Shown here in pieces: positions 5,345 to 33,584 of a stretch of DNA of 33,635 bases; position 1 is the first letter of the stretch; every line of letters begins with the position of its first letter. The notes beneath the pieces are model-generated. The model saw only the letters and a list, made by a program, of their open reading frames with translations, searched no databases and was not told the DNA's origin. The stretch is from Chloroflexota bacterium (GTDB lineage Bacteria > Chloroflexota > Dehalococcoidia > Lucifugimonadales > JACQOS01), in NCBI GenBank assembly GCA_016202425.1, contig JACQOS010000101.1:1-33635 (forward strand), read 5' to 3'. The position numbers and the translations under genes are program-made.

Positions 5345-5448
5345 GCTGAAAAAGGGGAGTCCAGAGGGCCGACTTATCGGCCCTTTGACGGGGGTCTGGG
5401 GGTGTCCCCCAGATACAATTTCTTCCCCCTTCCTGGCCCGGAAGGGGG
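5345..5448 (+). repeat. Modular intergenic repeat, copy 2 (long form)
   Basis: About 100 bp, near-identical to the reverse complement of 33485-33584. Contains hairpins GGGCCGA..TCGGCCC, CTGGGGG-tgt-CCCCCAG and CCCCCTTCC..GGAAGGGGG. Confidence 0.85.
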
Positions 5449-5634
5449 CGAGGGGGATGGTCGTCCCGACCAGTCGGGATTCAGAACCCTCCAGGACCCG
5501 GCGTGCCTTGGGCGAGAGGTGCCCCCTCCGCCAAGACCTGCTACACTCCTCTGGCGGCGAAGGACGGGGGCCTCCCGTAGCCCGGGGCGGCCGCCCGGCC
5601 CGCCGCTCTCCCCAGGTACCCAGGAGGAGGTGTC

Positions 5635-7899
5635 ATGGTCACCGCCAAGAGTGTCGCTCTGCCCCGTGTGGATGCCCGAGAGAAGGTTACCGGTAGGGCT
5701 CTCTACACCGAGGACCTCCCCTCTCCCTACGGCGTGGCCTACTGCGCCATCCTTCACAGCCCCTACTCCCACGCTCGCATCCGCTCCATTCACGCCGAAA
5801 AAGCGGAGCGCCTACCGGGAGTCCTGGCCGTCCTGACCCGGGAGCATCTGGGGGCCACGAACCCCTACATCCCCTCGGGCGATCTTCCCCTCAACCAGCC
5901 CTTCATCGCCATGGACAAGGTCCGGCACGACGGCGAACCCGTCGCAGCGGTGGCCGCCGAGAGCCTGGCGGTGGCGCAGCACGCCCTGAGCCTCATCGAA
6001 GTGGACTACGAGGAGCTCCCGGCGGTGTTCGACGTCCGGGATGCCGTGGCCCCGAACTCGCCCCGTTTGCACGACGCCTTCACCTCCAACGTCTTCTGGG
6101 AGTACCGGTGGAACTGGGGCGACGCGGAGAAAGGCTTCCGTGAGGCGGACCGCGTCTTCGAGGACACCTACTACTTCCCCAGCGTCTTCCAGTACCCCAT
6201 GGAAAACGTTGGCGCGTGCTTCGCCGAGTTCCGGGGCGACGGCGTGGAGCTGGTGGCACCCATCCAGCATCCCTTCCCCCACCAGGATGAGATCGGCGAG
6301 ATGTTCGGCCTCCCCCCTGAGCGGGTGCGCATACGCATGCCCTACGTGGGTGGAGGCTTCGGAGCCAAGGAGCTCAAGACCAACCACCTCATCGCCCTCT
6401 GGCTCGCCCACAAGACCGGCCGCCCCATCATGACCGTCCCCTCCGCCTGGGAGAGCATCCGCACCGACGGTCGCCACCCGATGGTGTACAAGGTGAAAAC
6501 GGGGGTGAAGGCCGACGGGACCCTTTGGGCCCAGGACATCGAGCTCCTGGTGGACTCGGGCTCTTACGCCCGCGCCCTCAGCCAGATCGTAGCGCGTCTG
6601 GCTGTGGCCGGGGCGTGGGGCCCGTACCGCGTCCCCCACATGCGCATGGTGGGCTACGCCGTCCTCACCAACCGCGTCCCTCCTGGCGCTTTCCGCGCCC
6701 TTGCCAAGGCCCAGGTGACCTGGGGCTACGAGTGCAACCTGGACTCCATTGCCCGGGCCATGGGCGTGGACCCCATGGAGTTCCGTATCAAGAACTTCAT
6801 GCGCCGGGGCGACCCCATCGCGGAAGGGGCATCCCCCCTGGACACCGACTACGATGTCCTGCTGCGCAAGGCAGCCCAGGCCATCGGCTGGGATGGGCGC
6901 TCCAACCGCGTCGGCCCGGAGGCTGCAAAGCGCCCAACGGGCAAGGGACCCTTCCGCGGCCGTGGCCTCAGCACCACGTTCCGCCACGGCTTCTCCGAAG
7001 GCTCCAACAACTTCGTGACCGCCATCCTGGACAGGCACGGCAAAGTGAGGCTTCTTCACTCGGCCGCAGAGATCGGCATGGGGGTCTACGCTGTCATGAC
7101 GCGACTGGCGGCCCAGGCCATGGGCATCCCGGAGAACGACATCGAAGTGGGCCATGCGGATACCGAGCACCCCCACTCGGACGGCATTGGGAGCTCCCGG
7201 GACACCGTGTGCATGGGGAATGCCGTGCAGGATGCCTGCGAGGACCTGAAACGGGAGCTTCTGAGCGCCGCCGCCATGTGCAAGGGCGGGAGGCCCGAGG
7301 AGTGGCGGCTGGCCCAGGGCCGGCTGTGGCACGGCGAGCACGACTTCTCCCCGAGCGAGATCGTGTTGGGCACCCACCCCCGCTCAGGAGTGATCATGGG
7401 GAAAGGCTCCTATATCACGCCTCGCCGCAACAACCCTTTCCTGGGCATCGTCCCCCACTGGGAGGCGAGCGCGGGAGCGGCAGAGGTGGAGGTGGACCCC
7501 GAGACCGGGGAGGTGCGCCTCCTCAAGTTATCCACCGTGGCCGACGTGGGCAAAGCCATTCTGCCCGGCCCTTGCAAGGGGCAACTGGACGGTGGTGCCG
7601 TCATGGGCTTGGGGGATACCCTCTACGAAGAGGTGGTGTACCAGGAGGGTAGGCTCATCAACGGAGACCCCTTCCAGTACCGGCTGCCGGTGATGGCCGA
7701 TGTGCCGGAGGAGTTCCACTCCGTGATGGTGGAGAATGGGGACGGCCCGGGCCCTCTGGGGTCCAAGGGCATGGGCCAGAGCGGCGTGAGCACCGTGGCG
7801 CCCGCCATCGGCAACGCCGTCTACGACGCCATCGGCGTGCGCATCAAGGACCTCCCCATCACGCCGGAGAAGGTCCTGCGGGCCCTGGGCAAGCTCTGA
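5635..7899 (+). CDS. Xanthine dehydrogenase / aldehyde oxidase / CoxL-family molybdopterin-binding large subunit
   Basis: 754 aa. N-terminal PRVDAREKVTGRALYTEDL is the hallmark start of this family. GGGFG-type motif (VGGGFGAKE). ATG start with a GGAGGAGG SD. No adjacent [2Fe-2S] or FAD subunit genes are visible. Confidence 0.9.
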   Translation: MVTAKSVALPRVDAREKVTGRALYTEDLPSPYGVAYCAILHSPYSHARIRSIHAEKAERLPGVLAVLTREHLGATNPYIPSGDLPLNQPFIAMDKVRHDGEPVAAVAAESLAVAQHALSLIEVDYEELPAVFDVRDAVAPNSPRLHDAFTSNVFWEYRWNWGDAEKGFREADRVFEDTYYFPSVFQYPMENVGACFAEFRGDGVELVAPIQHPFPHQDEIGEMFGLPPERVRIRMPYVGGGFGAKELKTNHLIALWLAHKTGRPIMTVPSAWESIRTDGRHPMVYKVKTGVKADGTLWAQDIELLVDSGSYARALSQIVARLAVAGAWGPYRVPHMRMVGYAVLTNRVPPGAFRALAKAQVTWGYECNLDSIARAMGVDPMEFRIKNFMRRGDPIAEGASPLDTDYDVLLRKAAQAIGWDGRSNRVGPEAAKRPTGKGPFRGRGLSTTFRHGFSEGSNNFVTAILDRHGKVRLLHSAAEIGMGVYAVMTRLAAQAMGIPENDIEVGHADTEHPHSDGIGSSRDTVCMGNAVQDACEDLKRELLSAAAMCKGGRPEEWRLAQGRLWHGEHDFSPSEIVLGTHPRSGVIMGKGSYITPRRNNPFLGIVPHWEASAGAAEVEVDPETGEVRLLKLSTVADVGKAILPGPCKGQLDGGAVMGLGDTLYEEVVYQEGRLINGDPFQYRLPVMADVPEEFHSVMVENGDGPGPLGSKGMGQSGVSTVAPAIGNAVYDAIGVRIKDLPITPEKVLRALGKL

Positions 7900-7960
7900 A
7901 CCATCCCTCGTGCCTCCCCTGGCTACGTCCGCCAGGGCGCAGTGCCGAAGAACGGGGCGC

Positions 7961-8458
7961 CTACGCCCCCGTGCCCAGGCTGGCCGCACTCACAAACCTC
8001 CCCAGATTGGCATCATAGTACCGAGCGTTATAGAAGTACAGTCCCGTCCCGTCCAGCCTTTGCCCCGTGAACTTCCGGTCCGTCCCCAGCGTACCGTTGC
8101 TGGTCCTGGCCTCCCCGAAGGGCTTGTACCGCAGGCTGCTCACCTGTGCCCCGGTGCCGTCCGTGCTCACCAGGGAGCCGCCCAGGTGGTCCTGGTGCAC
8201 GTACTCCAGGGCCGTGCCCTTGCGCAAGGCCACCAGGCGCTCTCCCAGGTAGTAATACGTGGTGACCACTCCGGTGGTCACGTTCTTCTCGTAGTAGCGG
8301 TTGGCGTAGTGGACCGTCTGGCCACCCTCCAGCTTCTTTACTCGGTTCCCGTCGCCATCATACACGAACCTGGCACCGCCGCTCACCGCCGTCACGCGGT
8401 TGGGCACGTCCCAGGCGATGGCCTGGGAGCCCCGGGTGGTCATGTTGCCGTTGGCGTC
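7961..8458 (-). pseudogene. Orphan Rhs core fragment (YD repeats to ...NARYYDANLGRFVS), lacking the DPxGL motif and any toxin domain
   Basis: DANGN.., YDGDGNRVKK and YFYNARYYD..GRFVS are Rhs/YD core signatures. The reading frame opens right after a stop at 8474-8476. Homology to the 9475-9845 copy ends exactly after RFVS, and 8 unrelated codons and a stop follow. Confidence 0.85.
7989..8356 (-). repeat. Direct repeat A (Rhs core segment), paired with 9475-9845
   Basis: By-eye alignment at an offset of about 1486 bp. It includes a long perfect run starting CCCCGTGAACTTCCGGTCCGTCCCCAGCGTACCG (8063 / 9549). Confidence 0.85.
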
Positions 8459-8516
8459 GCAAATTTTCAGTAGTTAGCATCCTTCAAAGGCCAGCATTGA
8501 CTCTTAACAGGCGCTT

Positions 8517-8837
8517 CTAGAGTTTAAGAAAACGCTTGAGAAGCCGATATGCCCGGTAGGCGAGCGCACCGCCAACCAAACTAACAACTGCGGCAACCCC
8601 ACCGAGCACAATTTTCCCCATGACCGTAGCTGACGAAGCGGCGATCCCAGTCAAGGCTGAGACAAATGCAGCAAAAGGGTAATATGCTCGCACAAACTTC
8701 TCCATCGGCCGCCTCTTCGCAGCTAGCCAAACAGTTGGCATCACAACTGTCAGTACAAAGGTCAGTCCGATAGCAAGAGCTACGCGAATGTCTTCTCTGG
8801 AGATCCCGGTTGCCATAATGCCTATGAGTAGGTCCAC
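8517..8837 (-). CDS. Small polytopic membrane protein, putative cognate immunity protein 1
   Basis: 106 aa with about 3 hydrophobic helices and a basic C-terminus (AYRAYRLLKRFLKL). It lies 48 nt downstream of the Rhs-CT stop. It is a homolog of ORF 9891..10223, sharing PT(V/I), KFVR.Y.P and Y.L(L/V)KR(F/L)LK. Lower G+C than the flanks. Confidence 0.7.
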   Translation of the reverse strand: MDLLIGIMATGISREDIRVALAIGLTFVLTVVMPTVWLAAKRRPMEKFVRAYYPFAAFVSALTGIAASSATVMGKIVLGGVAAVVSLVGGALAYRAYRLLKRFLKL

Positions 8838-8885
8838 TATGCTCTTCTCTGTAGAGAGATGTCGCCAGACGTTTTCAAAATCGGG

Positions 8886-9767
8886 TTAACTAAAAAGGCC
8901 TTCCCATTGCGGAATAACTGATTCACTGTATATCGCAATTGTTACCGACCATCCTCCAACAAAAACGGAAACCTGTGTCGTAGCAGTTATTGGAAGGGCT
9001 ACAAACCAACCTATAGGTCCCGCAGCTATAGCTGGTGGGTAGGCGAAGATCAACACGCCGGCGACCGCGGTACCAGCGAGGGCTGGCACCAACGCCTCAA
9101 GGGTCTCAAGGGGTGTCAGCACTAGGTTAAACTCTGGCTGACGGTCCGATGTTGAGGGCCGTGCATCGTCTAGGAGTTGCGAAACAGCAGGCTGAATACC
9201 CCCTTGGGCCGCGATGTCTGCTGCCACGAACTGCTGGTGCTCAAATTCAATCTGCGCCCCGAGGCCGTTGATGATGAGCAGGGTTTGCGGGGGTGGGGCT
9301 TCACCTTGCTGCGACAGGTCATACGCCTCCTGCTCCGCTTTCCGCACCTTCGCCTCGTCTTCCGGGCGGTGGTGTAACCCTGTGGGGTCAGTGTACTTGA
9401 GCGGGTTGTTCACGACATAGCTGTACCGACTCAGGCCCTGGGGATCTCTCAGGCGTGGAACAACGCTATCCGGGCTCACAAACCTGCCGATCTGGGGGTC
9501 GTAGTATCTGGCGTTATAGAAATACAGTCCCGTCCCATCCAGCCGCTGCCCCGTGAACTTCCGGTCCGTCCCCAGCGTACCGTTGCTGGTCCTGGCCTCC
9601 CCGAAGGGCTTGTACCGCAGGCTGGCCACCGTGGCCCCAGCGCCGTCCGTGCTCACCAGGGAGCCGCCCAGGTGGTCCTGGTAGACGTACTCCAGGGCTG
9701 TGCCCTTGCGCAAGGCCACCAGGCGCTCTCCCAGGTAGTAGTACGTGGTGACCACTCCGGTGGTCAC
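8886..9767 (-). CDS. Orphan Rhs C-terminal module: core end + DPxGL + about 160-aa C-terminal toxin-like domain with a hydrophobic tip
   Basis: RYYDPQIGRFVSPDS and NNPLKYTDPTGL form the Rhs core terminus. GTG at 9767 is the first start codon, but Rhs homology in the same frame continues up to a stop at 9846-9848 (DADGNLVKKLEGG...). No N-terminal Rhs shell is present. Confidence 0.85.
   Translation of the reverse strand: MTTGVVTTYYYLGERLVALRKGTALEYVYQDHLGGSLVSTDGAGATVASLRYKPFGEARTSNGTLGTDRKFTGQRLDGTGLYFYNARYYDPQIGRFVSPDSVVPRLRDPQGLSRYSYVVNNPLKYTDPTGLHHRPEDEAKVRKAEQEAYDLSQQGEAPPPQTLLIINGLGAQIEFEHQQFVAADIAAQGGIQPAVSQLLDDARPSTSDRQPEFNLVLTPLETLEALVPALAGTAVAGVLIFAYPPAIAAGPIGWFVALPITATTQVSVFVGGWSVTIAIYSESVIPQWEGLFS
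9085..9302 (-). repeat. Direct repeat C (N-terminal part of the toxin CT), paired with 10481-10698
   Basis: 218 bp with 5 mismatches by my manual count. Confidence 0.9.
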
Positions 9768-9845
9768 GTTCCTCTCGTAGTAGCGGTTGGCGTAGTGGAC
9801 CGTCTGGCCGCCCTCCAGCTTCTTTACCAGGTTACCATCGGCGTC
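9475..9845 (-). repeat. Direct repeat B (Rhs core segment), paired with 7989-8356
   Basis: See repeat A. Confidence 0.85.
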
Positions 9846-9890
9846 TTAGGACAACTGGCGCTGAGGCTTACAGGCTCTACGACAAAGCTT

Positions 9891-10223
9891 TCACTGCTTG
9901 AGCAAACGTTTGACAAGACGATAGATCGGGTAGGAGCCATAGCCCGCTGCTAAGGCCACAGGGCCGATTATTCCCATGACGACCAGCTTTTCTACTAGCT
10001 CAGAGGCTGTAACCACGACGCCTGCCTCTGCCGAAAGGAAAAGAGCCCATGGAACATACCGCCGGACAAACTTGTCCGGATTACCTTTGCGAATAGCGAT
10101 AACGATTGTTGGAAGGATCACTGTCAAAAAGAGGACAACCGTGGCAGTTAGCCCCATCATGATGTCGTCAGGCGTTAACTGTGTCAGTCGGTTTAAGCCT
10201 GTCATGACTCCTCCGACGAGCAT
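9891..10223 (-). CDS. Small polytopic membrane protein, putative cognate immunity protein 2
   Basis: 110 aa with about 3 hydrophobic helices. ATG start. It lies 49 nt downstream of the CT fragment stop. Divergent homolog of 8517..8837. Confidence 0.7.
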   Translation of the reverse strand: MLVGGVMTGLNRLTQLTPDDIMMGLTATVVLFLTVILPTIVIAIRKGNPDKFVRRYVPWALFLSAEAGVVVTASELVEKLVVMGIIGPVALAAGYGSYPIYRLVKRLLKQ

Positions 10224-10272
10224 TCATGAAAGTGCACGCTCCTGGCGGCTACGACGCCCGGACCCTGCGACT

Positions 10273-10710
10273 CTACCGAGGCCGTTTGAATAGATCCATC
10301 CATTGCGGGATCACCGACTCACGTAGCACGAGCCCAGTACTAATCACTCCGCCAAAGAAGCTAACTGCTTGGGTAGTTGCCGTTACTGGCAACACGAAGA
10401 ACCATCCCACTGGCCCCATACTTATGACTGCAACATCGGCGGGAAGTAGGGCTACGACAACAACAGTACCCATGGCAAATGGCACCAACGCCTCAAGGGT
10501 CTCAAGGGGTGTCAGCACTAGGTTAAACTCTGGCTGACGGTCCGATGTGGAGGGCCGTGCATCGTCTAGGAGTTGCGAAACAGCAGGCTGAATACCCCCT
10601 TGGGCCGCGATGCCTGCTGCCACGAACTGCTGGTGCTCAAATTCAATCTGCGCCCCCAGGCCGCTGATGATCAGCAGGGTTTGCGGGGGTGGGGCTTCGC
10701 CTCTCTGCAC
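10273..10710 (-). CDS. Orphan Rhs-CT toxin fragment (no Rhs core), variant 2
   Basis: EAPPPQTLLIISGLGAQIEFEHQQFVAAGIAAQGGIQPAVSQLLDDARPSTSDRQPEFNLVLTPLETLEALVP is almost identical to the CT of 8886..9767. A divergent hydrophobic tip then follows. Homology stops at about 10698, 38 nt from the proS stop. Confidence 0.75.
   Translation of the reverse strand: MQRGEAPPPQTLLIISGLGAQIEFEHQQFVAAGIAAQGGIQPAVSQLLDDARPSTSDRQPEFNLVLTPLETLEALVPFAMGTVVVVALLPADVAVISMGPVGWFFVLPVTATTQAVSFFGGVISTGLVLRESVIPQWMDLFKRPR
10481..10698 (-). repeat. Direct repeat D, paired with 9085-9302
   Basis: See repeat C. Confidence 0.9.
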
Positions 10711-10735
10711 TCCCCTTCACAGAATTCTCAGACCC

Positions 10736-12436
<1,701 letters not shown>

Positions 12437-12613
12437 CCCTGGCCGCATTCCTTCTTTCAAGACGCCACGAGCAAGTTCGCCTGCGCGGTCACCCGCGGGC
12501 AGCCCCAGTCCGGCCGGGGCGCCCCAAGGGCCCCCCTGGCGGTAGGATAGCAGAGCAGCGGGTACGAGGCCAGGATGCTTGCGCCGGGCCACGGCGCCCC
12601 AGGGAGCCGGCCC

Positions 12614-13403: not shown

Positions 13404-14318
13404 CTAGCACAAGGGATATCGCTGTCTTCTCTCTTTTAGGACAAGGGCGCCCGATCGAGTCCAGGTCAACTCTCTACCTATGAGTAACTCAAACATCCTG
13501 GCATGATGGGTATTCGTCATGGCCACTGCCGCCACCTGAAACGCGTGCGCTTGAGCCAGTTGCCGAATTTCGGGTGCATCGTCGTATGTCATCAAAAAGT
13601 CGCCAACAAGTGACTGAGCAATCCTGAATAGAGCCACGTGATCAAGGTCATTATGCGTGTAAAGACGAGTTCCAGCTCTCTTGCCACCAGCCGTGTAGGG
13701 GGGGTCAATGAAATACACTACGTCCGGCCGTGCAGCATACTGTCTCAAGACGTCCATCCCATCCCCTTCGATGAACCGAATGCGATGACGCAACTTATGG
13801 ATGTTAAGGATGCGTCTCTTCAAAGTCTCTGGGTACCAACGGGACCTTACCCCTTTGCCGTTTTCACCGTATCTCAGTAAGCTGGCTCCGGGTGCCAAGA
13901 TTCCACCCCTATTGACCCTGTTCCGAACGATCGTCTGAAAGGCCTTCTCCCGAAGGCTGGCAACTTGCCTCGCTAGCTCTTCTTGAACGGATTCCAGGGA
14001 AGGCTCAAACCCCGTGATCCTGTTGACTAGCCATTCGCAATCATCGCTCAAAACGGTTCTCCAGACGGCAGCCACTTGGTCGTCGAGTTCTACCATAGTG
14101 AGGGTGTCTACGAAATTCTCAAATACTGCGGTCAGGCCCACAATGGCACCCCCAGCGAACGGCTCAAGAAGTTCCTTAGGCCTCACGCGCTGGGATGCCA
14201 ACCATTGGCGGGCATATGGAACGAGCCAAGTCTTCCCTCCTGGATAGCGGAAGGGGCTCCTCTGTGGAACAGAGGCAACGTTGACTACATCCTTTCCGAT
14301 GAGAAGTAATTGGACCAT
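13404..14318 (-). CDS. DNA adenine (N6) methyltransferase, Dam-like D12 class
   Basis: FRYPGGKTWL, motif I EPFAGGA and motif IV IDPPY in alpha-class order. ATG at 14318 lies 4 nt after the endonuclease stop. The TTG at 14333 is the ORF-track start. G+C is visibly lower than in neighbouring genes. Confidence 0.88.
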   Translation of the reverse strand: MVQLLLIGKDVVNVASVPQRSPFRYPGGKTWLVPYARQWLASQRVRPKELLEPFAGGAIVGLTAVFENFVDTLTMVELDDQVAAVWRTVLSDDCEWLVNRITGFEPSLESVQEELARQVASLREKAFQTIVRNRVNRGGILAPGASLLRYGENGKGVRSRWYPETLKRRILNIHKLRHRIRFIEGDGMDVLRQYAARPDVVYFIDPPYTAGGKRAGTRLYTHNDLDHVALFRIAQSLVGDFLMTYDDAPEIRQLAQAHAFQVAAVAMTNTHHARMFELLIGRELTWTRSGALVLKERRQRYPLC

Positions 14319-14322
14319 AGAT

Positions 14323-15198
14323 TCACGGCTCAAACGCTAAGGGTTGGACGTCGGGTGCACCATGATTCTCGCCCTGCTTATCGAACTGCTCCTGAAGCTT
14401 CGCCAGGAAATCAGCCTCATCCCCTGGCTCCGGCTTAGTGATCTGGTCGAGAGCTGTTCCAAACTTAGTGTACACTTTTCGCTGTCTTTGAAGGAGGTAT
14501 CTTCGTGTCCTAGGGGAATACGCGGGCGTGTAAGTCAGCCACACCATCTCTGCCTGTTCTTGTGGTACCTCTTCAAGGAGTGGCAGGGTGTCGTACAAGT
14601 TCTCGTCCAAAGCAATGGCGATCTTTCTGTTCCAGGTGTGAAGAATGCCTCCCTTGTACAGTAGTTGGGGAGCTAGGCGCTTGCGAGAAGAGGAGAGGTA
14701 ATCAGGGCGTGGGTAACCAGGGCTACCTCTCCAGTCCATGCCGGCCCGTTTAACGGGATCATCCATGTAGTGCTGGAATGGCCGCCGGATGTTACCGGAG
14801 ATATAGAGAGCCTGGACCTCTAACGCCCCGTAGTCCAAGATCCGGCCGCGCTGGTCGTAGGAGACCAGCACGATGTCGACACTACCAGCAGCCTTGCCGT
14901 GCCGATCTTTCAATTCAACTTCGAACAAAGAGGTCCAATTCACATCGGGAGGGAAGAAGAAAGAGGCGGCGTCTTCTACGACAATCCAATCTTGCCGGAG
15001 CCGGATGGGGCAGATGATCACGACCCTTCCTTCATGAAACATGCTACATACCCCAAGAGGGTCCTCAGCATTATCCTTTGTGCAGTTAGCGGAGACGTTG
15101 TTGAAGGGACAAAGTCTACGTTTGCGATAGCGTTGCGCCTCTGGAGAGTGGTTGTTTACAGGGAATCCAAAGACCTCACCGAGCGGATGATTTCGCAT
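14323..15198 (-). CDS. Type II restriction endonuclease, NotI-like family
   Basis: The 3' third of ORF 14323..16251. The N-terminus GEVFGFPV...CPF..x..C.K....GVC.....IICPIR mirrors the NotI Cys4 metal-binding motif as I recall it. ALEVQALYISGN corresponds to NotI VLEIQTMDFHGS. ATG at 15198 is preceded by GGGGAAGAG. An alternative ATG lies at 15216. Confidence 0.75.
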   Translation of the reverse strand: MRNHPLGEVFGFPVNNHSPEAQRYRKRRLCPFNNVSANCTKDNAEDPLGVCSMFHEGRVVIICPIRLRQDWIVVEDAASFFFPPDVNWTSLFEVELKDRHGKAAGSVDIVLVSYDQRGRILDYGALEVQALYISGNIRRPFQHYMDDPVKRAGMDWRGSPGYPRPDYLSSSRKRLAPQLLYKGGILHTWNRKIAIALDENLYDTLPLLEEVPQEQAEMVWLTYTPAYSPRTRRYLLQRQRKVYTKFGTALDQITKPEPGDEADFLAKLQEQFDKQGENHGAPDVQPLAFEP

Positions 15199-15278
15199 GT
15201 CTCTTCCCCGGCGCATGGCTAAGGGCCCAAAATGTACTCCCGTATGGGCTACCGACGCTCCCCGCTCCACCCATCGCC

Positions 15279-16397
15279 CTACACCTTCTCCACCTCTTCC
15301 ATCAGGGCGGCGAGCATCTCCGCCTCCGGCACGACGCGCACCTTCTGCCCCTTGCGGAAGATAACGGCCCGTCCGGCCCCGGCGGCGATACCCACATCCG
15401 CGTCCTTGGCCTCGCCCGGGCCGTTCACCTCGCAGCCCATGACCGCGACCTTCACGTTCCTGTCCACGCCCTTGAGCAACGCGTCCACCGTGTTGGCAAG
15501 CTTGATCACGTCCACGTCCGCCCGGCCGCAGGAGGGACAGGCCACCAGGGTCGCGCCCTTCTGGCGCAGGTTCAGCGACTTGAGGATCTCGTAGCCGGCG
15601 AACACCTCCTCCCGAGGGTCGTCGGAGAGGGAGACCCGGAGGGTGTCTCCTATCCCCTCGTAGAGGAGCACGCCGATGCCGATAGCGCTGCGGATGCTTC
15701 CGGCCCTGGCGGTGCCTGCCTCGGTGATGCCCAGATGGAAGGGGTAAGGGACCAGCTCCGCCAGGCGGCGATATGCCTCCACGGTAGTGGGAACGTCGAA
15801 GGCCTTCAGAGAGACCTTGATGAGGTCGAAGTCCAGCGCCTCCAGGATGCCGATCTCCCACAGGGCCGTATCCACCATGTGGTCCACCAGCGAGTACTCC
15901 CCCTCCGACGCACCACCCGCTTTGGGCAGCAGGTTCACCTGGTCGCTCAGGCGGTGCAGGGCCCGCGTCTTGCCGATGGCGCCCACGGGAGGGAGGCTGC
16001 CGAAGTTCACGCCGATGCGAATGGGGACCTGCCGCTCCCCAGCCGCCCTGACCACCTGCTTCACCCGCTCCGCGTCGCGGATGTTGCCGGGGTTCAGGCG
16101 GAGGCAGTCCACGCCGCCGGCGATGGCCTCCAGGGCGAGCTGGTAGTGGAAGTGGATGTCCGCCACCAGGGGAATCCCGGTCTGGCGCTTGATCTCCTTC
16201 AGTGCCCTGGCAGCCTCCAGGTCCGGGACGGCGCACCGGACGATCTCGCACCCAACCTCCTCCAGGCCCTTGATCTGCGCTACCGTGGCCTTCACGTCCC
16301 GGGTATCGGTCTTGGTCATGGACTGGACGGTGATAGGTGCGTCGCCCCCCACCTTCACGGGGCCCACCCAGACCGGTTTTGTAGGCCGACGCTTCAT
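15279..16397 (-). CDS. ispG: 4-hydroxy-3-methylbut-2-en-1-yl diphosphate synthase (flavodoxin) IspG/GcpE
   Basis: KPVWVGPVKVGGDAPITVQSMT... and the C-terminal CPSCGR + GCEVNGPGE 4Fe-4S motifs. ATG at 16397 with a GGAAGGGA SD. Confidence 0.93.
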   Translation of the reverse strand: MKRRPTKPVWVGPVKVGGDAPITVQSMTKTDTRDVKATVAQIKGLEEVGCEIVRCAVPDLEAARALKEIKRQTGIPLVADIHFHYQLALEAIAGGVDCLRLNPGNIRDAERVKQVVRAAGERQVPIRIGVNFGSLPPVGAIGKTRALHRLSDQVNLLPKAGGASEGEYSLVDHMVDTALWEIGILEALDFDLIKVSLKAFDVPTTVEAYRRLAELVPYPFHLGITEAGTARAGSIRSAIGIGVLLYEGIGDTLRVSLSDDPREEVFAGYEILKSLNLRQKGATLVACPSCGRADVDVIKLANTVDALLKGVDRNVKVAVMGCEVNGPGEAKDADVGIAAGAGRAVIFRKGQKVRVVPEAEMLAALMEEVEKV

Positions 16398-16422: not shown

Positions 16423-17799
16423 CTACGCAGACGGCGTCTGACAAAACCGGTGAACAAGCCTCTGCGCGCCCTCAGTTGAAGCCCAGGCCGCGTCATCCGG
16501 GCCAACCTGGTTGGGACAGATGGCACAGACATTCGATTGAATAAGTTTCTGATGTAACACCTTGGCGTCGCGCAAGAGCGCATCCGGCTCGTTTGTGGCC
16601 TTGCCCAATGCCTGCGTCCACAATTCGAATCGCCTTCTCAGCTTGCCAGGATCAGTAGTACCTTCAGAAAACGCGTCAACAAACCGGTCCAGGACCATTA
16701 CATCGACAAGACGACGGCGTACTGCCATAGCGAAAAGCTTCCTATCCGCGTCCGTTAGTGAGCTCCAAGTCTTCTCAAGCAGCGCTCCGGCCTGAGCAAA
16801 CCCTACCATTTCTAGCTCAAAGAGGAGGTCATTCCGCGGCTTCCCCCACCGGCCAGGAGGGTTACCCGTGTCTCCACGCCTAAATAGACGAAATGCTTCC
16901 TGCCCAAAGACACGGTCGACCCAAGTGCAGGCGATTGCGAACTCCTGTCGGAATCTCTCCGCACTAACAGGATCAAGGTTCCGGTTAGTTTCCATCTCAT
17001 CATTTAGAAAGGACCGAAATGGCCTACGATATCTATCCATCCTGTGAAGCAACGCAAAAACCCGCAACACCAGCTCCCTGTGGCGCATTCTTTTGTCAGG
17101 TTCGTTCTTTTTCCAGAGGGTCAAGAAACGGTAGTCTTCACCCAACGAGGCAATCAACTTGTTGTATGGTCCCCTATACAAGCAATTCCTGAGTTCCTGG
17201 CTGTTCAAACTCATGGAACCTTGGTTCAGCCGCGCGAAGAGGGCGTATTTCATGTCCGAGTGCACACTTTTGGGAAGTCGGATCACCGAAAGTTCCGTAT
17301 CCCATAACTTGGAGCGATCCTCTATGCTTAGCGCAACGACTCCTTTGCCATTAAGCTCAGGCAAAACTTCCAATGCGCGCAGGGTGAGCGGGGTTAACAC
17401 GGTGTACTTTGTCTGCGTTTTTCCAGCAGCAGCTGTCGGACCCTGCAAAACCGGCTGCAGAAAACGAAACACGGTCTCTAGACGTTGATGTCCATCAATC
17501 ACCGCCCAGAGTCCATCCTGCTCTTCAGCTATGAAAATCGCCGGTGTAGGAAGGCGCAGTAACAGTGACTCTATGTAACGGCTTGCGCGGGTTGGGTCCC
17601 ACACATAGTGGCGCTGGAATTCTGGCTCTAAGATCAATTCTTGGCCCAAGTAGCGTTGCCACACTTCTCTGACCTTTACTTTGCTTTCCTCCCACGCGAC
17701 GCTCCGAAATTCCTCGGGGACATGCAAAGGAACGTATTCTTCCTCCTCCCGCTCCCGCTCCGCCCAACTTTCATCCTCCCCCTTAGCGCCCTTGACCAT
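16423..17799 (-). CDS. Stand-alone DUF262 (ParB/Srx-like, GmrSD N-terminal type) protein with an unassigned C-terminal region ending in CxxC...HxxC
   Basis: PEFQRHYVWD...ESLLLRLPTPAIF...VIDGHQRLET is the DUF262 signature. I did not recognise a DUF1524/HNH-type His-Me motif. The C-terminus is CAICPNQ..x..VHRFC. ATG at 17799 has a GGAGGG SD; the TTG at 17826 is the ORF-track start. Visibly lower G+C. Confidence 0.8.
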   Translation of the reverse strand: MVKGAKGEDESWAEREREEEEYVPLHVPEEFRSVAWEESKVKVREVWQRYLGQELILEPEFQRHYVWDPTRASRYIESLLLRLPTPAIFIAEEQDGLWAVIDGHQRLETVFRFLQPVLQGPTAAAGKTQTKYTVLTPLTLRALEVLPELNGKGVVALSIEDRSKLWDTELSVIRLPKSVHSDMKYALFARLNQGSMSLNSQELRNCLYRGPYNKLIASLGEDYRFLTLWKKNEPDKRMRHRELVLRVFALLHRMDRYRRPFRSFLNDEMETNRNLDPVSAERFRQEFAIACTWVDRVFGQEAFRLFRRGDTGNPPGRWGKPRNDLLFELEMVGFAQAGALLEKTWSSLTDADRKLFAMAVRRRLVDVMVLDRFVDAFSEGTTDPGKLRRRFELWTQALGKATNEPDALLRDAKVLHQKLIQSNVCAICPNQVGPDDAAWASTEGAQRLVHRFCQTPSA

Positions 17800-17846
17800 G
17801 TCTACCCTCCAAAGCCAGCTTCTCAACTAACAATTTTCAGAGCGCC

Positions 17847-24552: not shown

Positions 24553-24633
24553 GGGGAGTCCAGAGTCCCGAGAGTCGGGACGGAGCCTGCCCTGAGCGAA
24601 GTCGAAGGGACGGGGGTCTGGGGGTGTCCCCCA
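24553..24633 (+). repeat. Modular intergenic repeat, copy 3 (GGGGAGTCC + TCCCGAgagTCGGGA hairpin + GCCTGCCCTGAGCGAAGTCGAAGGG + GGGGGTCTGGGGGTGTCCCCCA)
   Basis: Shares its first and last modules with copies at 2164, 5354 and 33543 (inverted). Confidence 0.8.
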
Positions 24634-24726
24634 CTGGGCACTGCCCAGACCCACGACTCGCTACCGTCGCCTGTCGTAGGTACGCTGCAACGCTGGTACA
24701 TGGGGGTGCAGGGCGAGCCCTGCTCC

Positions 24727-33158: not shown

Positions 33159-33484
33159 AGGCCAACCACGTGGAGCTCACATCATTGCAGGCACCCACAG
33201 GTGCAGTGGGCTTTGCTCTGCAACCTTCCTTGTACATGCTGCAACGTTCATCCCACAAAAACAGGCCCCAGCAGATTTGAGACCGCTGAGGCTGCCTATG
33301 GAGGCCGTCTGGCAGCGTTGCATCCTCCTACCGCCTCATCAGTTCCCGCTCAAGGGTGAAGCGGAAGGGTGTCGAGCCACAGGCTATCGCACCACCTTTA
33401 GGCTATCTCTTCTTGGCTACTACGCGGGCAGTAAGCACTATCGCCAGAGTGAAGGGATCTTCATTGGCGTCGATTGTATCCTGT

Positions 33485-33584
33485 CCCCCTTCCTGGCCAG
33501 GAAGGGGGAAGAAGTTGTATCTGGGGGACACCCCCAGACCCCCGTCAAAGGGGCTTCGCCCCTCTGGACTCCCCTTTTTTCAGC
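33485..33584 (-). repeat. Modular intergenic repeat, copy 4 (long form, inverted relative to 5345-5448)
   Basis: The reverse complement aligns with 5345-5448 along its whole length. The first hairpin differs (GGGGCgaaGCCCC vs GGGCCGActtaTCGGCCC), but both versions still pair. Confidence 0.85.

Follow-up and report, generated by a model that had tools for sequence, protein, structure and literature searches.

A mosaic array of orphan Rhs fragments with two diverged, predicted toxin/immunity cassettes in a groundwater Chloroflexota bacterium

The window analysed here is the whole of contig JACQOS010000101.1 (33,635 bp; assembly GCA_016202425.1) from an uncultured Chloroflexota bacterium. On its minus strand, at 7961–10735, orphan C-terminal fragments of Rhs, all 5'-truncated, form an array between proS and a convergent gene of the xanthine dehydrogenase family. 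Reading away from proS, fragment A is followed by the immunity gene immA, fragment B by immB, and fragment C comes last. Two strongly diverged cassettes, each consisting of a hydrophobic tip and a predicted immunity gene, were found behind near-identical copies of one upstream block, and this mosaic requires recombination. The favoured reading, to which a probability of about 0.7 was given, is that the locus is a short orphan Rhs toxin/immunity array, made mosaic by recombination, whose tips would be membrane toxins and which would now serve mostly as an immunity repertoire.

Results and discussion

Mosaic structure of the array

The two copies of the CT-proximal block (CTprox; CT, C-terminal region), which adjoins each tip upstream, were very similar. 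The initial annotation of this sequence had counted five differences between 9085–9302 and 10481–10698, and ungapped comparison gave exactly that number, i.e., 5 mismatches in 218 bp; the full repeat (9084–9312 against 10480–10708) spanned 229 bp with 8 mismatches (96.5% identity), also ungapped. The Rhs core repeat (7989–8362 against 9475–9848) was gap-free over 374 bp and 90.6% identical, so that the earlier description of both conserved flanks as near-identical is apt for CTprox and overstates the core. The mismatch rates of the two repeats differed significantly (8/229 against 35/374; chi-square approximately 7.3, p approximately 0.007), and they therefore record events of different age. 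Between the repeat blocks no DNA similarity was detected by blastn (word size 7, E = 1e-3). Codon alignments gave 48% protein and 50% DNA identity for tip A and tip B, and 38% protein and 49% DNA identity for immA and immB; with synonymous sites saturated besides, tip and immunity gene are indeed strongly diverged yet homologous, as had been proposed.

The upstream edge of the diverged region was abrupt. The 69 nt upstream of it in gene direction (10480–10548 against 9084–9152) were 100% identical, and past the codons for ...EALVP (10480/9084) the 15-nt windows fell at once to 6–10 matches, which are random levels. Pairwise alignment of the two units thereby located the upstream breakpoint at 10480/9084, with divergence that was not uniform along the unit. 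The lack of mismatches in the 69 nt beside the breakpoint, taken within the 229-bp block, was not significant (about 0.06 by hand calculation). Unlike the upstream edge, the downstream edges were out of register, core homology running from approximately 9866/9848 in one unit and approximately 8460 in the other.

Synonymous (dS) and non-synonymous (dN) divergence between the units, and G+C content at third codon positions (GC3), were as follows (pS, proportion of synonymous differences):

CT-proximal block: dS 0.08; dN 0.02; GC3 0.60–0.63
Core repeat: dS 0.26; dN 0.05; GC3 0.83–0.88
Tip: dS saturated (pS 0.84); dN 0.54; GC3 0.40–0.50
Immunity genes: dS about 2.8 (pS 0.73); dN 0.64; GC3 0.51–0.56

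The GC3 of proS was 0.87, as in the core, and composition shifted in step with the divergence strata. A comparison of dN/dS between variable and conserved parts had been suggested at the outset; it yielded a value of 0.19 (omega) for the core repeat, while for tip and immunity gene the ratio was not computable because synonymous sites were saturated. Positive selection on the cassettes was thus neither demonstrated nor excluded, and the long-term average of dN/dS is clearly below 1.

Since dS was 0.08 in CTprox while the adjoining tip was synonymously saturated, the mosaic requires recombination. CTprox was missing from every other member of the family described below, where Gly/Pro-rich or acidic linkers stand in its place, and its near-identity consequently reflects recent common ancestry and not constraint. 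Furthermore, tip B was no closer to tip A (48% identity) than to homologues from two unrelated metagenomes (52% to locus L080, 48% to L082), and immB was 38% identical to immA and 39% to its counterpart in L080. This too indicates that the shared upstream block was acquired through recombination, rather than left over from divergence in place. Judged by their sequences, cassettes A and B would be old, separate lineages of one rare family.

The same data bear on the suggestion that the units arose by tandem duplication in place, outside DNA being uninvolved, with fast diversifying selection on tip and immunity gene and with flanks held by purifying selection. The units do lie in tandem, with homology over their full extent, and Rhs tips are generally regarded as fast-evolving (general background; PMC7043789). 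However, selection on protein cannot saturate synonymous sites immediately beside a block with dS of 0.08, and GC3 falls from 0.60–0.63 to 0.40–0.50 at the same boundary. Given also that homologues of tipB and immB in other metagenomes are no more distant than tipA and immA, and that CTprox, being unconserved in other members, is not under family-wide constraint, duplication in place is considered very improbable.

Anatomy of the array

The features of the array and its flanks, in the order of transcription of the array, were these:

10736–12592, minus strand: proS (prolyl-tRNA synthetase), flanking gene, co-directional and directly upstream of the array (Pfam tRNA-synt_2b, tRNA_edit, HGTP_anticodon)
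10273–10708, minus strand: fragment A, made up of CTprox copy A and tip A; Rhs core lacking (from sequence and alignment)
10480–10708, minus strand: CTprox copy A, the 5' end of fragment A (229-bp repeat of 9084–9312)
10273–10479, minus strand: hydrophobic tip A (68 aa, then the stop codon); two hydrophobic segments, tail conserved as ...ESVIPQW..LF; GC3 0.50
9891–10223, minus strand: immA, immunity protein predicted to be membrane-bound (three hydrophobic segments); intact open reading frame (ORF)
9375–9866, minus strand: Rhs core fragment B, 5'-degenerate, with a full Rhs-associated core domain (TIGR03696) ending in YTDPTGL at 9375
9313–9374, minus strand: 21-codon linker after DPxGL (HHRPEDEAKVRKAEQEAYDLSQ), in unit B only; by alignment its counterpart is missing upstream of 10708
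9084–9312, minus strand: CTprox copy B, the final ~17 codons of which (EFNLVLTPLETLEALVP) are already within the conserved tip domain
8886–9083, minus strand: hydrophobic tip B, 65 aa plus stop; GC3 0.40
8517–8837, minus strand: immB, predicted membrane immunity protein of 106 aa with three hydrophobic segments; intact ORF, 38% identical to immA
7961–8460, minus strand: Rhs core fragment C, a dead stub that starts at a YDANGN-type repeat and ends ...YYDANLGRFVSAASLGTGA* before DPxGL, with no CT or immunity gene after it
5635–7899, plus strand: molybdopterin-binding subunit of the xanthine dehydrogenase/aldehyde oxidase family (XDH), flanking gene, convergent with the array (Pfam MoCoBD_1, MoCoBD_2, Ald_Xan_dh_C)

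The homology of unit A to unit B started at 10708, 28 nt past the proS stop codon, so that proS and not an rhs gene stands directly upstream of the array. No terminator-like site was found between proS and the array by simple scan. The spacing within each cassette was similar: 48 nt separate the tipB stop from the start of immB, and 49 nt the tipA stop from that of immA, a distance that becomes 67 nt with the ATG at 10205. The latter is the likely true start, judging from the GGAGGAG just before it, and would give a protein of 104 aa; the gene caller's product (P0121) was also 104 aa long. The last ~17 codons of CTprox were placed in the tip domain because the profile matches of the relatives started at position 71–73.

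All three toxin fragments were truncated at the 5' end. Fragment B opens with a frameshift near 9866 and an in-frame TAA at 9848–9846, although its core is otherwise complete: against TIGR03696 unit B scored 80.5 bits (cut-off 32.5) over positions 1–76 of the 76 in the profile, ending ...NNPLKYTDPTGL, whereas unit C scored 44 bits over positions 1–52 only and unit A gave no match. Zero to five open codons preceded the core matches, and neither a YD-repeat shell nor an N-terminal delivery region was encountered in the same frame. The fragments have the form of orphans, that is, of 5'-truncated rhs that retains some core and lacks a translation start and export signals. Fragments A, B and C would all be unable to yield a deliverable protein, which leaves immA and immB as the sole intact genes.

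Support from independent assemblies

The sample was a groundwater metagenome, and the same cassettes occurred in four DNA runs of one study, for which Logan unitigs and contigs served as independent assemblies. In run X1, unitigs with 0 mismatches and an even depth of 13–18x covered every unique junction of the array:

7000–8090: XDH into core C
8294–9113: core C, immB and tipB into CTprox
9231–9576: core B
9788–10509: immA and tipA into CTprox
10627–10913: CTprox copy A into proS

These unitigs bear on the explanation that the repeats are an assembly artefact, created from mis-joined strain variants. The contig is metagenome-derived, and the Logan assembler itself merges the two CTprox copies, and likewise the two core copies, into single unitigs. 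Yet all unique junctions (proS/CTprox-A, tipA/CTprox, tipB/CTprox, immA/core-B and XDH/core-C) were contained in those mismatch-free unitigs, and the cassettes recurred in each of the four runs, so that an artefact is hardly credible.

No alternative or recombinant joints were found in the four runs among Logan contigs, which break or collapse at repeats and hide rare variants. A contig from run X3, covering 8772–9186, joined tip B to CTprox with a G at 9153, which is the base of copy A (10549). This could be explained equally by low coverage combined with bubble-popping, or by gene conversion between the CTprox copies in another population.

A rare family of tips and immunity proteins

Only the window's own products came back when 5.8 billion proteins were searched by indexed words, with either the CT by itself or the two immunity proteins as query, and looking up the called toxin protein by exact match gave no other contig. 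An exhaustive HMMER search over 1.84 billion representatives recovered four true relatives of the tip (P0124–P0127; E between 7.5e-6 and 9e-12), with matches that spanned from just before the hydrophobic part through to the C-terminus. Three further candidates from this search (P0123, P0128 and P0129) were judged spurious, being repetitive proteins that matched CTprox as 3–6 repeated stretches. When metagenomes were scanned with the three-sequence tip alignment, 600 stretches matched and none was confirmed, and a degenerate DNA pattern for QIEFEHQQFV, from CTprox, had zero occurrences in the JGI metagenomes.

The context of the relatives resembled that of the array. In three of the four, Rhs core-end sequence preceded the tip (a large part in P0125 and P0127, the last motif only in P0126); in all four contigs the next gene encoded a predicted membrane protein of 100–102 aa, homologous to immA and immB. 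Loci L081 and L082 also had more Rhs core fragments downstream of the immunity gene. Immunity proteins of the family shared a basic stretch followed by the pattern (D/E/P)(K/R/G)(F/L)(V/F)R, and by hydropathy they had three hydrophobic segments, the first of them followed by basic residues, which also occurred at the C-terminus. Family-averaged hydropathy of the tip showed two hydrophobic segments around a conserved AAGPxGW turn, followed by a conserved (E/H)(E/S)(V/I)(I/L)PxW tail. Across the six pairs, tip and immunity distances were correlated (Mantel r = 0.79, reached by 1 of 720 permutations). This fits a pair that is co-inherited or co-evolving, and simple linkage would give the same result. 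The tip and immunity families are unannotated, very rare and new, with six known members together.

On two unrelated metagenome contigs (L080:1879–2136 and L083:937–1137) an ORF stood directly after the tip/immunity pair, with a common N-terminus (…SF(Y/H)GSYLYD.IV.QDHLLRKIN.VVDFSF…) that resembled, by eye, the N-terminus of an IS5/InsH-type transposase; in L080 there was a DDE_Tnp_1 fragment upstream as well. The transposase-like ORF may be a vehicle for moving such cassettes.

Rhs core relatives and orphan arrays elsewhere

The core, by contrast with the tip, had many relatives: all of the 2031 Rhs matches to the query were confined to the core part. The best core match in a scan of GTDB genomes, a set that lacked the present genome, was 62%, in a Dehalococcoidia metagenome-assembled genome (MAG), and no GTDB locus matched past approximately residue 190 of the 293-aa query, a limit that takes in the core and, with weak similarity, a stretch of linker. 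Of 83 related loci, most of them in Chloroflexota MAGs, 46 had two or more core fragments, with up to 11 in one locus, and in many the main gene came first with the orphans after it. Some loci, e.g., L011, L029 and L067, had truncated fragments only, with no long upstream reading frame in the fetched flank, and sequence was shared beyond DPxGL among units of the same array in about 7 of 40 arrays. Hence neither the missing main gene nor the shared block inside the CT is unique to the window.

Besides the window's own, the 119 best Rhs-core matches were all short (163–513 aa), including several on contigs of 0.1–1.3 Mb. Truncated Rhs fragments seem to far outnumber full-length genes in these mostly Chloroflexota genomes. 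In terms of core position, the 5' end of the orphan fragment at L081:1415–1699 (…YVYDGDGRRVKK…) roughly coincided with that of fragment B of the window, and this is also where the repeat between core B and core C starts, at 9848 and 8362 (…YDGDGNRVKK… / *DADGNLVKK…). The coincidence hints at a preferred 5' boundary for displaced core fragments.

Interpretation: proposed origin, toxin mechanism and present role

In the usual history of an Rhs locus, an incoming cassette recombines into rhs through conserved upstream sequence and displaces the earlier cassette downstream. Homologous recombination would here have put two cassettes behind the same CTprox sequence, the crossover having taken place not at the DPxGL boundary but ~17 codons into the toxin domain, directly ahead of its first hydrophobic helix. 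Most likely, a later deletion then removed the full-length gene down to 10708.

By analogy with known membrane toxins, and not through homology, the tip would act after delivery and release at DPxGL, when a two-helix hairpin of ~70 aa would enter the cytoplasmic membrane of the target cell and collapse its membrane potential. Helix-helix contacts within the membrane would allow the small cognate protein, itself membrane-bound, to block the hairpin. Specificity would then, on the same analogy, reside in the tip/immunity pair, as the initial annotation had it; if a membrane hairpin is what the immunity protein recognises, the diverged part would be expected to start exactly at the hydrophobic hairpin. 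The most likely present role of the array is that of an immunity repertoire, possibly transcribed through proS read-through, and it could be a silent reservoir of tips too, provided that the genome has a compatible full-length rhs at another place.

Several results weigh against this account. Neither the tip nor the immunity protein had any match in Pfam, NCBIfam or a PDB profile search, and they are thus without homology to any characterised toxin or immunity protein. AlphaFold2, run on the two-sequence CT alignment, gave an unusable model (pLDDT 34, pTM 0.18), so that the two-helix hairpin and the three-segment membrane topology are predictions drawn solely from hydropathy. A promoter and terminator scan of the array was uninformative, Chloroflexota promoters being outside its coverage. 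There is no full-length Rhs in the 33,635-bp contig, where the longest ORF encodes an unrelated product of 754 aa, and no extra core copy running into a main gene was seen in X1 unitigs at >=97% identity. With the full-length rhs missing from view, displacement as the history of the array and its use as a reservoir are both inferences.

The stronger claim implied by the initial annotation was that cassettes are swapped by homologous recombination at the conserved blocks. For the past this was borne out, since the contrast between dS of 0.08 and saturation makes an exchange at the CTprox/tip boundary evident. As an account of the present, it would hold that CTprox upstream and the core repeat downstream are kept as recombination sites, and that an expressed full-length Rhs located elsewhere currently receives tip/immunity pairs through them, in the manner of gene conversion from silent cassettes. 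Both repeat families do bracket each cassette; with 229 bp at 96.5% and 374 bp at 90.6%, they come close to the Salmonella region of 522 bp at 95% (PMC3967940), and the mosaic shows at least one past exchange at the boundary. However, the recipient gene is absent from the contig, and the extra core copy that might represent it was lacking in X1 at the same identity limit. CTprox was found nowhere else either, protein searches having returned only the window's own protein, the JGI pattern nothing and the GTDB loci the core only. The repeats within the array are direct, which means that a crossover between them deletes or duplicates a cassette and never swaps it. Moreover, the downstream core fragments begin at different points and, at 90.6% identity, look like the leftovers of separate insertions and not like sites that are maintained. 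Contig-level data contained no alternative joints, though contigs hide rare variants. Present-day exchange is therefore regarded as possible, though doubtful.

A specific form of this scheme would be a working silent-cassette library, in which an unlinked full-length Rhs that shares CTprox takes up one of the two tips through gene conversion, the breakpoint lying inside the toxin domain, while the immunity genes are expressed at the silent locus via proS read-through. The variable copies are promoter-less, 5'-truncated and flanked by conserved blocks, as are silent cassettes of the pilE/pilS type. An expression locus with the same conserved blocks was found neither on the contig, nor among X1 unitigs (>=97%), nor in GTDB genomes or JGI metagenomes. 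Such a library is judged quite unlikely; if it were real, it would amount to pilS-like switching for a membrane toxin, with exchange of a sub-domain rather than of the whole CT.

Alternatively, the orphan CT/immunity pairs could be expressed internally as modules of a toxin-antitoxin (TA) kind in the producer, being neither delivered weapons nor a reservoir. Internal promoters and TA-like behaviour are reported for main and orphan Rhs modules of Salmonella (PMC7043789), and possible starts are available here, namely an in-frame GTG at 10710 just after proS for fragment A, and internal start codons in unit B. Against this, a G-rich stretch abuts the GTG directly, which is poor spacing for a ribosome-binding site, and the gene caller behind the protein database left fragment A uncalled. 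This role for the pairs appears improbable.

Comparison with known systems

The architecture is the known orphan rhs-CT/rhsI design (PMC3150448, PMC3967940) and is not new. As in Salmonella Typhimurium (STM0292) and Dickeya dadantii 3937, 5'-truncated fragments keep part of the core, the toxin fragment lacks a translation start, and a variable CT after DPxGL is followed directly by a small immunity gene. Also shared are a core of host-like composition with a more AT-rich tip, and a block of high-identity DNA able to support homologous recombination; in Salmonella, an orphan tip can be transferred to the main rhs by recombination over a 522-bp region with 95% identity (Koskiniemi 2014, PMC3967940). 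There is also a precedent for orphan immunity being expressed while the toxin of the orphan is not (Poole 2011, PMC3150448). The array differs from its enterobacterial counterparts in having proS upstream instead of the main rhs, in having lost the core entirely from one fragment (A), and in belonging to an uncultured groundwater bacterium. Also, its sharpest block of identity is within the CT, and instead of stopping at DPxGL it extends ~17 codons into the toxin domain.

The nearest functional analogue is Tse5-CT/Tsi5 of Pseudomonas aeruginosa, in the sense only that the tip may work like it. Tse5-CT forms pores and its immunity protein sits in the membrane (PMC9637101); a cryo-EM structure of Tse5 is described in PMC10684867. 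Tse5 (RhsP1) and the tip have in common C-terminal hydrophobic helices borne on Rhs, predicted here to insert into membrane and without an enzymatic signature, and a small immunity protein, predicted here to be membranous, encoded directly downstream. The tip is much shorter than Tse5-CT (~70 aa), and its immunity protein has three predicted hydrophobic segments against the two reported for Tsi5. The tip-family profile, run against PDB sequences with E values as high as 10 allowed, gave no match, to Tse5 or otherwise, presence of the Tse5 chain in that set being unconfirmed.

CdiA-CT toxins are modular, with N-terminal and C-terminal CT sub-domains, and the array likewise combines a shareable upstream part of the CT with a varying, putatively toxic downstream part. 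The shared upstream part differs in being absent from other family members, and looks more like a linker than a conserved entry domain; the shell is of the Rhs/YD kind rather than a CdiA filament, and the boundary motif is DPxGL rather than VENN. Orphan cdiA-CT/cdiI arrays, like the array here, have promoter-less toxin tips, intact immunity genes and recombination at conserved sequence upstream of the variable part (PMC3150448).

A further parallel, and again not a homologous one, concerns the pore-forming colicins. In these a hydrophobic helical hairpin is recognised in the membrane by a small multi-pass immunity protein, and specificity maps to the hydrophobic helices. The colicins have another delivery route, and their pore domain is a 10-helix bundle, compared with a hairpin of ~70 aa here.

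Other features of the window

Among housekeeping genes there was an island of low G+C content (about 53%) at 13404–15279, with a D12-class N6-adenine DNA methyltransferase (13404–14333) and a NotI-family restriction endonuclease (within 14323–15279). At 16423–17826 a further low-GC gene (50–54%) encoded a GmrSD N-terminal domain, as type IV restriction enzymes against modified DNA typically do; the restriction-modification island lies on one side of it and the rseP-like (M50/PDZ) and dxr genes on the other. Together with the Rhs array, these make three separate conflict-related insertions in the stretch of dxr, M50 protease and proS.

A GC-rich palindromic repeat (core GGGGGTCTGGGGGTGTCCCCCAG) occurred in both orientations at 2190–2234, 5381–5453, 24608–24652 and 33480–33552. 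One pair of these was 73 nt long and 95% complementary. The repeat resembles an intergenic element of the REP type.

Implications

Recombination mosaics of this kind are already known for Rhs and CDI loci, and the current picture of how Rhs loci evolve is unchanged by the array. What it provides is a clean, quantified case of Rhs tip shuffling in which the break falls within the toxin domain, where the hydrophobic hairpin starts, and not at DPxGL alone. If the tip depolarises membranes, it would be among the smallest Rhs-borne toxins to do so, and cassettes A and B would be a natural pair for mapping the specificity between toxin and immunity protein within the membrane.

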